Positions 761-5,250 of a stretch of DNA of 5,250 nt are shown here, in pieces. The stretch lies in the IMG/VR virus record IMGVR_UViG_2609459846_000012; one strand, written 5' to 3'. A program made the translations under genes and the position numbers. The first letter of the stretch is position 1. Each line of letters begins with the position of its first letter. The stretch is from a virus. Taxonomy: Duplodnaviria; Heunggongvirae; Uroviricota; Caudoviricetes. Below the pieces are notes generated by a model. It worked only from the letters and a program-made list of their open reading frames with translations. It ran no database searches and was not told the origin of the DNA.

Positions 761-940
761 TTATTCCTGCTCTTTGGCCTTGCGACGCTGGCGGTATTCA
801 ACTTCTCGCTTTAATGCTGCTGTTACAAACTGCCCTGTACTTTCACCAGGCATTTTTACCGCCTCAACATTGTTCATAACTTCATGCGGAACCCTTGCCG
901 CAACTGTTTGTGATTTTGCGTTTACTGCTTTTGTTGCCAT
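761..940 (-). CDS. ribbon-helix-helix (CopG/Arc/MetJ-like) DNA-binding protein, 59 aa
   Basis: Hand-translated minus-strand ORF (below the ORF-track size cutoff): MATKAVNAKSQTVAARVPHEVMNNVEAVKMPGESTGQFVTAALKREVEYRQRRKAKEQE*. Predicted beta-strand (TVAARVPHEV), helix A, G-x-S/T turn (PGESTG), helix B fits the RHH fold pattern. SD-like AAGGGG about 7 nt upstream of the ATG. Divergent from the replication operon. Confidence 0.6.
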   Translation of the reverse strand: MATKAVNAKSQTVAARVPHEVMNNVEAVKMPGESTGQFVTAALKREVEYRQRRKAKEQE

Positions 941-989
941 GTTGTGTACCCCTTACAAAAAACAAATGCAGTATGCAGGAAAAAAAATA

Positions 990-1043
990 AGTGTTCAACA
1001 CTTGACGTGTTTAACACCAGAGCTTAAATTGGTGTTCAACACC
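990..1043. promoter_or_regulatory. divergent promoter/operator region with three palindromic operator-like sites
   Basis: AGTGTTCAACACT (990-1002), GTGTTTAACAC (1007-1017), GGTGTTCAACACC (1031-1043). Rightward sigma70-like promoter: -35 TTGACG (1002-1007), 17-bp spacer, -10 TAAATT (1025-1030). Leftward promoter candidate on the minus strand: -35 TTGAAC (within palindrome 1), 17-bp spacer, -10 CATACT (complement of 970-975). Confidence 0.5.
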
Positions 1044-1139
1044 TTACTGATGCAAGGTGCAGAAACGACGAAACCCGGCAGTGCGCTAACACTAACCGGG
1101 CTTCTAACCACCAACGATAGAAAGCGTATCGAGGTAGCT

Positions 1140-1346
1140 ATGAGAAATTATACCAGACACCCGCAAGGGCGGGACTCGTACAACCTGAATAAATACATCT
1201 GGCGTTTTATCGCCCTGAGCACGGCACAACCGCGCGTGATTACCATTGAGGCCACCAGCGAACAGGAAGCGCGTCAGCAATCTCCTGATGGCTGCGTGAT
1301 GGTATTCGCTGCCCGTATTCGTCAGGGGGTACGCCATGTGCAATAA
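1140..1346 (+). CDS. small phage protein, possibly Icd-like (host cell division inhibitor-like) family, 68 aa
   Basis: In-frame ATG inside the spurious 374-aa ORF with SD GAGG upstream: MRNYTRHPQGRDSYNLNKYIWRFIALSTAQPRVITIEATSEQEARQQSPDGCVMVFAARIRQGVRHVQ. The W.F.A....ATSE.EAR....V.VFAAR pattern matches my recollection of Icd-like small proteins annotated beside P4-family primases; the family call is from memory and unverified. Confidence 0.45.
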   Translation: MRNYTRHPQGRDSYNLNKYIWRFIALSTAQPRVITIEATSEQEARQQSPDGCVMVFAARIRQGVRHVQ

Positions 1347-2033: not shown

Positions 2034-2333
2034 ATGAAACTTAAATATTCTGGCTTAACTGCCAGTGGCAACACTCACCCTAAATTTACGCGCGGCGATA
2101 TTTACCGCGACCAGTACGGCGGCACGGTAATGATTAAGGACGTGGAAGAACGGCGCGTAACCTACCGCCGTGAAGGTTACGAATATGATTGCGTGATGCC
2201 TGTTTATCAGTTCCGGCGTGATTTTTCTCTGGTACAGACCGCGCCGCATAACGTGTCCACCAGCAACGCCAGGGCACGGGCAAACATCCAGAAGCTGAAA
2301 ACCATGATTAACGGATTCAGGGGTAAAAAATGA
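2034..2333 (+). CDS. hypothetical protein, 99 aa, immediately upstream of and coupled to the replication gene
   Basis: ORF-track ORF; SD GGAGA upstream; stop overlaps the alpha-like start (ATGA). Occupies the position that epsilon/orf151 hold relative to alpha in P4 as I recall it, but no sequence support for homology. Confidence 0.55.
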   Translation: MKLKYSGLTASGNTHPKFTRGDIYRDQYGGTVMIKDVEERRVTYRREGYEYDCVMPVYQFRRDFSLVQTAPHNVSTSNARARANIQKLKTMINGFRGKK

Positions 2334-4144
2334 AACTGGCACCGAACGTAAAACAGCAGTCACGCGGCATAAAACACAAAGAAACAGAAGTCATTATTTT
2401 TGCGGGTAGTGATGCCTGGTCACACGCAAAACAATGGCAGGAACATGACGCGCGTATGGCCGGAGATAATGAGCCTCCTGTGTGGCTTGGGGAGCAGCAG
2501 TTATCCGAACTGGATAAGCTGCAAATTGTGCCGGAAGGCAGAAAATCCGTGCGCATATTCAGGGCCGGATATCTTGCGCCAGTAATGATAAAGGCGATTG
2601 GTCAGAAGCTGGCGGCGGCAGGCGTACAGGATGCAAATTTTTATCCTGAGGGTATGCACGGCCAGGAGGTGCAGAACTGGCGCGAATATCTGGCCCGTGA
2701 GCGCCAGAATCTTTCTGATGGTCTGGTGATTCAGCTTCCTGTTAAGAAAAAAACAGAAGACAGCGCCGCACCACTGGCGCTTAACCAGATGGGAGCAAGC
2801 CAGCGCGGCGAAGTTCTCCTGGCACATTATGGCGGTGAACTGGCGATTCATGCCGACTCTGACACTGTTCACCATTACAACGGCGTTGTATGGGAGCCGA
2901 TTCAGGATAAAGAGTTACAGCGTGCTATGGCGCAGATTTTCATTGATGCGGAGATCAGCTATTCGCAGAACGCCATTAAATCGGCGGTCGATACCATGAA
3001 GTTAAGTTTGCCTGTAATGGGGAATACAGCCCGTAACCTGATTGGATTCAGTAACGGGGTATTTGATACCAGAACAGGTAATTTTCGGGAGCATAACAAA
3101 AACGACTGGTTGTTAATTGCCAGTGAATTACCTTTCAGCCCACCAGCAGAGGGGGAAACGCTGGCAACACATGCGCCGAATTTCTGGAAGTGGTTACGCT
3201 GCTCGGTGGCAGAGAATGACCGCAAGACGGATCGCGTGCTGGCTGCATTATTCATGGTGCTGGCGAACCGGTACGACTGGCAGTTATTCATTGAGGTAAC
3301 AGGTCCAGGGGGAAGTGGTAAAAGCGTGATGGCGGAGATTTGCACCATGCTGGCGGGTAAGGCCAACACAGTATCGGCAAGCATGAAGGCGCTGGAAGAT
3401 GCAAGGGAACGCGCGTTAGTGGTTGGCTTTTCGCTGATTATCATGCCGGATATGACCCGCTACGCTGGTGATGGCGCAGGAATTAAGGCTATTACAGGCG
3501 GTGACAAGGTGGCAATCGACCCGAAGCATAAAGCCCCCTACTCAACACGCATTCAGGCGGTCGTGCTGGCGGTGAACAATAACGCCATGTCATTCAGTGA
3601 CCGCAGCGGGGGGATCTCACGTCGTCGGGTGATATTCAATTTTTCGGAGGTTGTACCGGAGAACGAGCGCGACCCCATGCTGGCAGAAAAAATAGAAGGA
3701 GAGCTGGCGGTTGTGATTCGCCATCTGCTTACTCGTTTTTCTGACCAGGACGAAGCTAAACGCCTGCTGTATGAGCAGCAGAAATCAGAAGAAGCTCTGG
3801 TGATAAAACGCGAGGGCGATTCGCTGGTGGACTTCTGTGGCTATCTCATGTCGTCGGTAATGTGTGATGGTCTGTTAGTGGGTAATGCCGAAATTATTCC
3901 GTTCAGTCCGCGCAGGTATCTTTATCACGCCTATCTGGCATATATGAGGGCACACGGATTCGGTAAACCTGTAACACTGACGCGCTTCGGTAAAGATATG
4001 CCGGGGGCAATGGCGGAATATGGCAGGGAGTATATAAAACGGAAAACGAAGCACGGTTTGCGTTCAAATGTGACACTGACAGAGGATTCAGAAGACTGGA
4101 TGCCATCATGTGCATCGGTCACAAATGACGACAGCAAAAATTAA
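2330..4144 (+). CDS. P4-alpha-like replication initiator: D5_N-like region plus SF3 (P-loop) helicase, 604 aa
   Basis: Walker A VTGPGGSGKS (nt 3302-3325); Walker B-like hydrophobic run ending in D (LIIMPD); motif C-like VVLAVNNN; upstream GFSNGVFDTRTGNFREH resembles the D5_N / P4-family primase C-terminal region. Cognate iterons lie immediately downstream. The N-terminal ~200 aa are unassigned. Confidence 0.85.
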   Translation: MKLAPNVKQQSRGIKHKETEVIIFAGSDAWSHAKQWQEHDARMAGDNEPPVWLGEQQLSELDKLQIVPEGRKSVRIFRAGYLAPVMIKAIGQKLAAAGVQDANFYPEGMHGQEVQNWREYLARERQNLSDGLVIQLPVKKKTEDSAAPLALNQMGASQRGEVLLAHYGGELAIHADSDTVHHYNGVVWEPIQDKELQRAMAQIFIDAEISYSQNAIKSAVDTMKLSLPVMGNTARNLIGFSNGVFDTRTGNFREHNKNDWLLIASELPFSPPAEGETLATHAPNFWKWLRCSVAENDRKTDRVLAALFMVLANRYDWQLFIEVTGPGGSGKSVMAEICTMLAGKANTVSASMKALEDARERALVVGFSLIIMPDMTRYAGDGAGIKAITGGDKVAIDPKHKAPYSTRIQAVVLAVNNNAMSFSDRSGGISRRRVIFNFSEVVPENERDPMLAEKIEGELAVVIRHLLTRFSDQDEAKRLLYEQQKSEEALVIKREGDSLVDFCGYLMSSVMCDGLLVGNAEIIPFSPRRYLYHAYLAYMRAHGFGKPVTLTRFGKDMPGAMAEYGREYIKRKTKHGLRSNVTLTEDSEDWMPSCASVTNDDSKN

Positions 4145-4158
4145 ACTTATGGAATAAC

Positions 4159-4386
4159 TGTTCACCACTGTTCACCCTGTTATAAATATCTTTTATATCA
4201 GTACATTATAGGGTGAACAGTTATTTGTGAACTGTTCACCAAACTATTCACTGTTCACCTTTTTGATTATTTATTGAGCTTTAAGGGTGAACAGTGGTGA
4301 ACAGTTGGTGAATAGTTTTTGTGAAACTGTTCACCCCTTAACATTATGAATAAAAAGGGAAAATATCAAAAGGTGAACAGGTGAAG
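4159..4386. repeat. origin of replication: iteron array of TGTTCACC octamers in both orientations, interspersed with AT-rich tracts
   Basis: Forward TGTTCACC at 4159, 4169, 4233, 4252, 4328; reverse GGTGAACA at 4212, 4286, 4296, 4372; degenerate copies at 4177, 4245, 4307, 4380. Adjacent copies are spaced 10 bp apart (4159/4169; 4286/4296). AT-rich stretches at 4177-4210, 4260-4284, 4336-4370, 4389-4418. The octamer is identical to the type I iteron bound by P4 alpha in ori and crr, as I recall it. Confidence 0.8.
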
Positions 4387-4431
4387 GGTTAAAATGCAAA
4401 AATTTTATTTTATTGCTGTGAGGTAAAGCCT

Positions 4432-4677
4432 GTGACAACGAAGCACGCAAAAAAACCACAATCTCACGCCCTTGATTTGACAGAACACTGGCTGAGGGTG
4501 GCGATAAAAATCATCGACCGCAACGCGGGAGAAGGGTACGCAAAAGCACATCCCGAACTGGTAAGCGCATTCATGACCACGGCAGCGGCAAACTTTGCCA
4601 CGCTGACAGAACGGGAGATTGCCGAAGCGGAACAGGTGACAACCATCAACGTTAAAACCGGAGAGCAGACAGCATGA
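4432..4677 (+). CDS. hypothetical protein, 81 aa (GTG start)
   Basis: ORF-track ORF; GAGG 8 nt upstream of GTG; stop overlaps the start of the SSB-like gene (ATGA). Confidence 0.55.
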   Translation: MTTKHAKKPQSHALDLTEHWLRVAIKIIDRNAGEGYAKAHPELVSAFMTTAAANFATLTEREIAEAEQVTTINVKTGEQTA

Positions 4678-5099
4678 CAGCACAGATAGCGGCTTACGGG
4701 CGGCTGGTGGCTGACCCGCAGTTAAAGACCACCAGCAAAGGGACACAAATGGCGATGGCGAGTATGGCGGTTCCCCTGCCGTGCAGCCAGGCAGATGACG
4801 GAACGGCGACGATGTGGTTATCTGTCCTGGCGTTTGGCAGACAGGCCGACGCACTGGCAAAACACCACAAAGGCGAACTGGTGAGCGTGGCGGGTAACAT
4901 GCAGGTGAGCCAGTGGACAGGCCAGAACGGGGAAACGCGGCAGGGCTGGCAGGTTATTGCAGACAGCGTAATCAGTGCGCGAACGGCGCGACCGGGCGGC
5001 AAAAAAGGTCAACAGGGCCAGGCCACTGACGCACTGAACAGGGCAAAACAACAGACAAGCCAGCACGATGACCCGTACGGGGATAACATACCGTTTTAA
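4674..5099 (+). CDS. compact single-stranded DNA-binding (SSB-family, OB-fold) protein with conserved acidic C-terminal tip, 141 aa
   Basis: By-eye alignment to E. coli SSB: IAAYGRLVADPQL vs VILVGNLGQDPEV; MWLSVLAFGRQADALA vs EWHRVVLFGKLAEVAS (W54 and F60 equivalents kept); SQWTGQNGETRQGWQVIAD vs RKWTDQSGQDRYTTEVVVN (W88 equivalent kept); C-terminus DDPYGDNIPF vs SSB tip DFDDDIPF. The Gly/Gln-rich linker is much shorter than in host SSB. Confidence 0.7.
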   Translation: MTAQIAAYGRLVADPQLKTTSKGTQMAMASMAVPLPCSQADDGTATMWLSVLAFGRQADALAKHHKGELVSVAGNMQVSQWTGQNGETRQGWQVIADSVISARTARPGGKKGQQGQATDALNRAKQQTSQHDDPYGDNIPF

Positions 5100-5135
5100 T
5101 TCACAACAGCGAACAGAGTAATTACGGGGGAAGGC

Positions 5136-5250
5136 ATGACAACGCTGACCATTAACCGGAAGCCGAAAGGCATTTACGGCACGCCGCAGAAAACGACGCA
5201 GGCGGCGCAAGAGCAGGATAAAACCACATCGGCGCATAAAGTGATACCCG
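5136..5250 (+). CDS. hypothetical protein, 5' portion only (runs off window)
   Basis: ATG at 5136 preceded by GGGGGAAGG; open to window end (MTTLTINRKPKGIYGTPQKTTQAAQEQDKTTSAHKVIP...). Confidence 0.45.
   Translation, partial: MTTLTINRKPKGIYGTPQKTTQAAQEQDKTTSAHKVIP

Follow-up and report, generated by a model that had tools for sequence, protein, structure and literature searches.

The capsid-forming PICIs (cf-PICIs) belong to a group of phage satellites that move virulence and defence genes, and the usual summary of their replication is "Rep plus origin". About one E. coli genome in three has a satellite of this type. The cf-PICI prototype, EcCIEDL933 (bioRxiv 10.1101/2022.09.08.507074), is an element of ~14 kb that has no tail or lysis genes and replicates with a DUF927 Rep. 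In Gram-negative PICIs, SSB has been assigned to the "Replication" category and co-localises with mapped origins (PMC10111431), and a ProQ/FinO-like accessory gene has been noted in an Enterobacter PICI (PMC13612085). On plasmids, FinO-domain proteins have as their targets the antisense RNAs by which replication or transfer is controlled (PMC9977716), and the IPF tip of E. coli SSB is an established docking site for its partner proteins (PMC10164576). The cf-PICI and Gram-negative PICI type, replication of the P4-alpha type, the presence of SSB genes by PICI origins and the occurrence of FinO/ProQ genes on mobile elements were thus all known before the present analysis. The cf-PICI literature examined does not discuss the orf81, ssb and proQ genes described below, and the literature examined does not treat the family of the 81-amino-acid protein encoded by orf81, its origin-proximal position across initiator types or its coupling to ssb.

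The DNA analysed here, referred to as the window, is a stretch of 5,250 nucleotides from the IMG/VR virus record IMGVR_UViG_2609459846_000012. The chromosome of E. coli strain 100248 is 99.9% identical to positions 4100-5250 of the window, and in that chromosome (locus L001) the sequence lies in an island of ~14 kb between allE and allC. The island begins with an integrase, a small HTH regulator (AlpA-like), YlcI/YnfO, an Icd-like gene, three small ORFs and DUF4222, continues with a "DNA primase family protein" (Rep), the iteron origin, the 81-aa ORF, SSB, a ProQ/FINO family protein and an 82-aa ORF (orf82), and ends with the HK97-type major capsid protein, prohead protease, portal, head-tail connector, HNH, TerS and TerL genes. 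The annotation, a Pfam search of Rep and the iterons place the integrase, the AlpA-type regulator and Rep followed by the origin in the same orientation, as in cf-PICIs, and no tail or lysis genes are annotated in the element. The original prediction, made from the letters of the window alone, had advised extending the sequence beyond its end, and it was this locus that supplied both the complete FinO/ProQ gene and the capsid genes.

The allE/allC element shares its gene order, its length of ~14 kb and the lack of tail and lysis genes with EcCIEDL933, and in the EcCIEDL933-type element of O157:H7 an orf81-ssb pair follows that element's own origin, as it does here. The two elements differ in their integration site (allE/allC here, roxA/phoQ in the EcCIEDL933-type element), in their Rep (P4-alpha-like here, DUF927 there) and in the occupant of the accessory slot (proQ/finO here, perC there). 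By its gene content, the window is part of an E. coli phage satellite of the capsid-forming PICI type, for which induction by a helper and transfer in its own capsids with helper tails are predicted. Positions 4432-5250 would represent the origin-distal end of the satellite replication module together with the first gene of a variable accessory slot, ahead of the capsid and packaging genes, and this picture as a whole, including the mechanism proposed below, is regarded as probable. The features on which it is based are collected in Table 1.

Table 1. Positions of features in the window and, where stated, in locus L001 of E. coli strain 100248.
Feature	Position	Strand	Remarks
Rep gene	2330-4144		P4-alpha-like helicase/origin-binding
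Origin spacer, Rep gene to orf81	4145..4431		287 nt; nine TGTTCACC copies in both orientations (4159-4379); AT-rich end
Shine-Dalgarno GAGG of orf81	4420..4423	+	8 nt before GTG; anti-SD duplex -6.9 kcal/mol
orf81, GTG start	4432..4677	+	81 codons; phrog_1231 member
Shine-Dalgarno GGAG of ssb	4660-4663	+	
ATGA stop/start overlap orf81/ssb	4674..4677	+	Translational coupling
ssb	4674..5099	+	141 aa; OB fold residues 4-100, short linker, tip ...GDNIPF
ssb-proQ spacer	5100..5135	+	36 nt; Shine-Dalgarno GGGGGAAGG at 5126-5134
FinO/ProQ gene, first 38 codons	5136..5250	+	ATG at 5136; runs past the end of the window
Satellite extent	L001, about 6277-20377		Flanked by allE and allC
Capsid-to-TerL packaging genes	L001, 14092-20087		As in cf-PICIs

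Over 464 residues, Rep shares 49% identity with the P4 alpha protein (alpha residues 313-776, the helicase and origin-binding region). The primase of alpha, held in its N-terminal ~310 residues, is missing from Rep: the alignment begins at alpha residue 313, and Rep residues 1-136 have neither a counterpart in alpha nor a Pfam match. The octamer TGTTCACC occurs 11 times in the window, nine of these in the origin spacer, with 0.23 copies expected for the whole window, and it is the same octamer that is annotated as "ori type 1 repeat" in the ori and crr of phage P4 (P4 record). In P4, crr lies downstream of alpha, and here the repeats likewise lie directly downstream of the Rep gene. With its helicase and origin-binding homology and the adjoining type 1 iterons, the locus is of the P4 alpha/crr type. 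P4 differs in having a terminator after alpha and in lacking orf81, ssb and proQ. The P4 ORF P4p05, which overlaps crr, was considered as a relative of orf81 and rejected, being unrelated to it. The spacer is 287 nt long in nearly all related loci and forms a near-perfect long palindrome, whose RNA would form a single long hairpin (-100.7 kcal/mol, z = -7.6). A literature search with the iteron string TGTTCACC returned only primer sequences.

Downstream of this origin, the genes are closely packed. The intergenic distances along orf81-ssb-proQ-orf82 are -4, 36 and -10 nt; the capsid gene begins 273 nt further on, and a promoter-like site is present in that last gap. That no terminator separates the genes, as originally claimed, was borne out by a consensus scan, which found no terminator-like site on the plus strand from position 2708 to the end of the window, nor, in the full-length homologous locus, any plus-strand terminator before the capsid gene is reached. 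The origin holds no consensus plus-strand promoter, the promoter and terminator scans registering consensus matches only. This spacing, the absence of a plus-strand terminator and the promoter-like site before the capsid gene thus fit a single predicted transcription unit, orf81-ssb-proQ-orf82, apart from the packaging operon. Against such co-expression from upstream, the very stable origin hairpin, if transcribed, might halt or cut a read-through transcript; transcripts of orf81-ssb-proQ may read through from Rep, be processed at the origin or start at an activator-dependent promoter.

The product of the middle gene, described at first as SSB-like, matches PF00436 (4e-16, 59.4 bits against a cutoff of 26), TIGR00621 (62.7 bits, cutoff 53.95) and SSB structures in the PDB, and its C-terminus, DDPYGDNIPF, has the acidic IPF tip. 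By these matches it is a bona fide SSB, with single-stranded DNA binding as an oligomer predicted. The OB fold and the C-terminal ..D-x-I-P-F tip are held in common with the bacterial, plasmid and phage SSBs of PF00436. Compared with the 178 amino acids of E. coli SSB, the satellite protein has 141 and a short linker, and the two are about 26-30% identical, the value being 26% for the OB domain. Among 77 SSB homologues, the ..IPF tip is present in 70, with a linker that varies in both length and sequence. None of the deposited phage SSBs is more than about 30% identical to the satellite SSB, which represents a satellite-specific lineage.

The protein encoded by orf81 was of greater interest. 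It has no match in Pfam or NCBIfam, and its profile match is to phrog_1231, a family of unknown function, over residues 2-80 (2.2e-49). An exhaustive profile search (E<=1e-3) gathered 697 clusters at 50% identity into the family, most members being 70-110 amino acids long, and a Pfam search of 71 members yielded only chance matches. The conserved motif ID..FG.GYAK.HPEL.AAFM.TAA.(D/N)F was obtained in two alignments and extends across the family as A-I-x-x-I-D-x-x-F-G-x-G-Y-A-K-x-H-P-E-L-x-A-A-F-M-x-T-A-A-x-D-F. An AF2 model built on a deep alignment predicts, with confidence (pLDDT 85), a helical hairpin made of helices 9-32 and 41-69, whose turn contains the invariant GYAK-HPEL segment; an earlier run on a shallow alignment gave pLDDT 63, and the deeper run alone was used. 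Fold searches provided no structural match from which a function could be read: Foldseek found nothing in the PDB at E <= 0.001 and only three uncharacterised phage proteins, probably family members, in BFVD, and a profile search of the PDB with the family gave nothing below E = 0.1. In tblastn searches of deposited phages, neither orf81 nor a distant member gave a match, and the family consensus retrieved Pseudomonas phage KT1 alone. A search of genome contigs with one protein returned one Shigella locus. Taken together, the profiles and conservation make orf81 a real, conserved gene of a large uncharacterised family. The profile and structure searches that the original prediction had recommended for both ORFs flanking ssb were thus productive for the downstream ORF, where they revealed a FinO domain, and for orf81 led only to phrog_1231 with no fold match.

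The strongest lead to the function of orf81 is the position in which its relatives recur. Three unrelated types of initiator gene (P4-alpha-like, DUF927 and RepA-family) precede orf81 in E. coli satellites, each time with an iteron-bearing gap in between, and the repeat units of these gaps differ (TGTTCACC, TAACCCGCA and AAAGTGGGGAG). In a temperate phage (L090 and L091), the family member is the first ORF after a Toprim_3/DUF5906 gene, across a 275-nt gap with ATTTACG repeats, and in Pseudomonas phage KT1 it comes first after a Prim-Pol/DUF5906/Pox_D5 gene, with TGGTTAGGGTT repeats in the gap. IMG/VR contigs show members in first position after Prim-Pol/DUF5906, Prim-Pol/VapE, DUF5906 alone and Zn-ribbon/Toprim/DUF927 genes. 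This arrangement was seen in nine of 28 distant IMG/VR loci and with six gene types; the gaps of distant members are mostly 255-326 nt, and the two that were checked both hold iterons. Two beta-proteobacterial islands have the order AlpA - member - ORF - DUF927. About half of the distant members do not stand beside a helicase gene, and instead adjoin an integrase, precede a portal gene or are alone in the chromosome. An SSB gene is nearby in only one of about 40 loci with distant members, that one being an enterobacterial-type satellite. The general association of the orf81 family, as judged from these neighbourhoods, is therefore with helicase-plus-origin modules, to which pairing with ssb has been added in a lineage-specific way.

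These observations are consistent with a mechanism in which induction by a helper phage would lead to rightward transcription of the satellite, through the origin or restarting at it, with co-expression of the genes downstream. Rep would open, or melt, the iteron origin; the satellite SSB would coat the single strands so exposed and, through its IPF tip, dock the host replication proteins that normally bind the host SSB. Made in step with SSB, orf81 would serve as a small helical-hairpin, probably dimeric, accessory factor or adaptor of helicase-driven replication. Because orf81 retains 75-85% identity across changes of initiator and iteron, its likely contact would be a conserved host or replisome component, and not the initiator or the iterons. 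A strict partnership of orf81 with SSB seems unlikely, because each gene occurs without the other. The FinO/ProQ protein would act outside the replication machinery as an exchangeable accessory RNA chaperone, presumably by binding a terminator hairpin in an RNA of the satellite, the helper or the host. A replication role for orf81 is put forward tentatively, as quite possible though short of probable. More doubtful is the wider proposal that its family constitutes a widely distributed, previously unrecognised accessory factor that assists the firing of origins or the assembly of forks in mobile elements with self-loading primase-helicases. Its gene would stand first behind the iteron origin with initiators of any type, and the protein might mediate between the element helicase, SSB-coated DNA and the host replisome.

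The main rival to a replication role would have orf81 as a host-takeover or counter-defence protein whose gene happens to open an early or middle operon, linked to the origin and SSB by position only. Its appeal lies in the many places where members are found (beside an integrase, behind AlpA, ahead of a portal gene or as orphans), in the occurrence of orf81 without ssb and of ssb without orf81, and in the make-up of the protein, which is small and helical with one highly conserved surface loop, GYAK.HPEL; small helical proteins with a loop of this kind typically bind a host protein. This account is harder to reconcile with the recurrence of members directly downstream of at least seven helicase or primase-helicase architectures, with iteron-bearing gaps where these were checked, and with an adjacency to helicases far above what random gene position would give. 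The PADLOC defence models match none of orf81, SSB, ProQ and orf82, which speaks weakly against a takeover role, as that library is one of defence and not of anti-defence proteins. A takeover or counter-defence function is accordingly considered rather unlikely, and the replication role was retained as the working interpretation. The orf81 family spans phages and islands of other Proteobacteria, and its pairing with ssb in the EcCIEDL933 system offers a concrete experimental target there.

The ORF downstream of ssb had been placed 37 nt after it with a strong Shine-Dalgarno sequence. Both the ORF and GGGGGAAGG are indeed present, with a spacer of 36 nt and the ATG beginning at the 37th base. 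Both ORFs flanking ssb had also been regarded as unknown, which holds for the uncharacterised 81-aa protein but not for the downstream ORF, a FinO/ProQ-domain protein. The full gene in L001 (13037-13579, 180 aa) carries the RefSeq name "ProQ/FINO family protein", and the full protein from that locus matches PF04352, the FinO domain, over residues 68-172 (8.5e-24, 84.1 bits, cutoff 27). The scores for FinO itself (PRK13754, 67.9 bits against a cutoff of 136) and for ProQ (PRK04950, 59 bits against 127) fall short of orthology, and by these profiles the protein is a member of the FinO/ProQ family that is neither FinO nor ProQ proper, with RNA binding predicted. As in FinO and FopA (PMC9977716), the FinO domain is borne on a mobile element; the satellite protein has a basic N-terminal extension and lacks the C-terminal domain of ProQ. 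It is <41% identical to the few phage homologues. The stretch is otherwise ordinary and partly annotated, the small 81-aa protein being the only uncharacterised one.

The family membership raises another reading, in which the FinO/ProQ protein controls replication or induction of the satellite through a cis-encoded antisense RNA, in the manner of FinO/FinP or FopA/Inc, and so belongs functionally with the origin-proximal genes. The FinO domain is clear, the plasmid proteins that carry it act on antisense RNAs (PMC9977716), a sub-threshold SymR-like match lies antisense to the Icd-like gene, and terminator-like hairpins are present on the minus strand inside ssb and proQ. Such terminator-like sites, however, number six against 3.4 +/- 2.0 in shuffled sequences and are thus not in excess, and no Rfam family reaches threshold, the matches on the element being confined to sub-threshold ones (miRNA models on the palindromic origin, and SymR). 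The proQ cassette, moreover, consists of the ORF alone, inserted between ssb and orf82 with no additional non-coding DNA, and most sister satellites replicate without it. Antisense control of this kind is judged unlikely, and a place for the FinO/ProQ protein outside the replication machinery remains the preferred reading.

The distribution of the genes was examined in 5426 complete E. coli genomes. DNA of the orf81-ssb pair is found in 1728 of them (at a coverage of at least 80% in 936), and the proQ-orf82 stretch is found in 373, roughly one fifth of the count for orf81-ssb. Of the 79 closely related loci whose sequence extends far enough, 76 have ssb after orf81, and SSB is full length in 68. 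The ATGA overlap noted in the original prediction is kept in 74 of the 76 related loci that have ssb. This near-universal linkage is overstated, because the loci, 80 from IMG/VR, were selected as the closest relatives of the orf81 of the window. The other gene combinations come from an evenly spread sample of the E. coli matches, which number ~2250 places in the 5426 genomes, and the co-occurrence figures are accordingly those of samples. There, a RepA-type helicase is followed by orf81 with no ssb (L005), and orf81 by perC or other genes, again with no ssb (L057, L002); a DUF927 Rep is followed by ssb and proQ with no orf81 (L101, L102), and a Rep by proQ and perC with neither orf81 nor ssb (L103). 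In one satellite, ssb leads directly to the lambda-type capsid and TerS genes of classical PICIs (L003), and in two others the order is ssb - perC - small ORF - capsid (L004, L100). In sister elements, proQ is replaced by PerC or by nothing, and the slot after ssb (proQ, perC or empty) is the site of accessory-regulator exchange in these satellites. As the sampled satellites show every other combination, orf81, ssb, proQ and perC behave as separately exchangeable cassettes, of which, in these comparisons, orf81-ssb is the only frequent pair. The presence of this conserved, coupled pair right after the origin adds to the "Rep plus origin" picture.

These comparisons bear directly on the possibility that the products of orf81, ssb and the downstream ORF function together, as a single dedicated multi-protein module. 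The ATGA overlap, the 36-nt spacer, the lack of a terminator and the linkage of orf81 and ssb in 76 of 79 closely related loci all agree with such a unit, but E. coli satellites combine the four cassettes independently of one another, genomes with proQ are roughly one fifth as many as those with orf81-ssb, and outside the enterobacterial satellites an SSB gene lies near only one of about 40 distant-member loci. Gene-content comparison has in this way largely refuted a fixed module, which is considered very unlikely. The original prediction, which assigned the SSB-like protein to a larger module of unknown function and proposed co-occurrence with the SSB-like gene as a check, is upheld in that the genes are real, conserved and packed with ssb downstream of an iteron origin; it does not extend to a fixed module, since orf81, ssb, proQ and perC are separately exchangeable, and their function is largely readable. 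It had also held that homologous elements with these ORFs missing or disrupted would speak against conserved genes. Disruption is not generally seen, 81 of 86 copies of orf81 being canonical, and absence is seen in part, in the two satellites without orf81 (L101, L102) and the one without both orf81 and ssb (L103).

The canonical 81-codon frame and the Shine-Dalgarno sequence described at the outset were confirmed (Table 1). In the 81 loci that keep this frame, the start lies at an identical position, with ATG in 50 and GTG in 31, and an N-terminal truncation is seen in two of the 86 related loci. Pairwise dN/dS values for orf81 are 0.18-0.20 at a dS of about 0.25. The idea that orf81 is not a gene but an open frame persisting through DNA constraint of the origin, to which its beginning at the edge of the origin and its GTG start in the window lend some colour, was rejected as having a negligible chance of being correct, refuted by this dN/dS at a synonymous divergence of 0.25, by ATG in place of GTG in 50 of 81 copies, by the 697 distant protein clusters with a common motif, by the confident AF2 model (pLDDT 85) and by the conservation of the Shine-Dalgarno sequence and the coupling to ssb. 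One RefSeq record (H15) names orf81 a "DNA alkylation repair protein", which is treated as a propagated label because no profile supports the name. Two long antisense ORFs on the minus strand (4405-4860 and 4818-5237) were likewise considered and rejected as genes, being unannotated in the homologous RefSeq loci, and conservation in this region resides in the plus-strand frames.

The match between the P4 alpha replication protein and the Rep of this E. coli satellite is confined to alpha residues 313-776, which comprise the helicase and origin-binding portions (49% identity). In this comparison the alpha primase region was absent from Rep, and a Pfam search with the N-terminal ~136 residues of Rep returned no match. 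The P4 type 1 iteron TGTTCACC is present in nine exact copies, in both orientations, in the origin beside Rep (window 4159-4379). In all satellites inspected, a DUF4222 gene lies directly 5' of Rep and overlaps it, regardless of whether Rep is P4-alpha-like, DUF927 or RepA-family, and the replication module appears to have in it another conserved companion gene that is uncharacterised.

The origin spacer that separates Rep from orf81, the 81-aa protein gene (window 4145-4431), is a long, near-perfect palindrome with a nearly invariant length of 287 nt across about 80 loci, and its RNA is predicted to fold into a single hairpin (-100.7 kcal/mol, z = -7.6). Any Rep transcript that continued across the spacer would meet in this hairpin, ahead of orf81, a strong obstacle or a target of the RNase III type.

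Beyond the origin, the two overlapping genes differ in how often they are damaged. The SSB gene, ssb, carries a truncation or a frameshift in about 8% of the satellites sampled (loci named for this observation: L006, L012, L034, L054, L058 and L085), versus truncation of orf81 in about 2% (L006 and L065), which suggests that resident elements, which may be in decay, can do without ssb more readily than without orf81. In a protein collection clustered at 90% identity, one cluster holds both orf81 and 140-aa SSB sequences, and another is shared by ProQ and an 82-aa protein; the probable cause of this co-clustering is that, in some assemblies, gene calls are fused or read through across the overlapping stop/start sites. 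The 82-aa protein, or its 74-aa relative, is always found just 5' of the capsid gene in capsid-forming satellites, whether or not proQ or perC precedes it, and may be part of the packaging module rather than of the accessory slot that follows ssb.

Coordinates of features in the window and in related loci (L001, the near-identical chromosomal locus; L004, a related satellite locus)
Feature	Location	Strand	Remark
Icd-like cell-division inhibitor	window about 939-1346	+	RefSeq; 3' part of a 374-aa ORF
SymR-like match	L001 8968-9040 = window about 1067-1139	-	antisense to Icd-like gene
DUF4222 gene	window 2034-2333	+	overlaps Rep start at 2330
Rep gene	window 2330-4144	+	annotated 'DNA primase family protein'
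82-aa protein (phrog_1957)	L001 13570-13818		beyond window
74-aa relative of the 82-aa protein	L004 8348-8572		~41-45% identity

At the other end of the window, the 374-aa ORF (222-1346, + strand) is not a gene; RefSeq annotates its 3' part alone, and places a YlcI/YnfO gene immediately 5' of the Icd-like gene, on the other strand. At 32.8 bits (E = 0.006), against a gathering score of 61, an Rfam match to the SymR antisense RNA is sub-threshold; it marks a site that might be a small antisense regulator, a candidate of interest because the same element encodes a FinO-domain protein.
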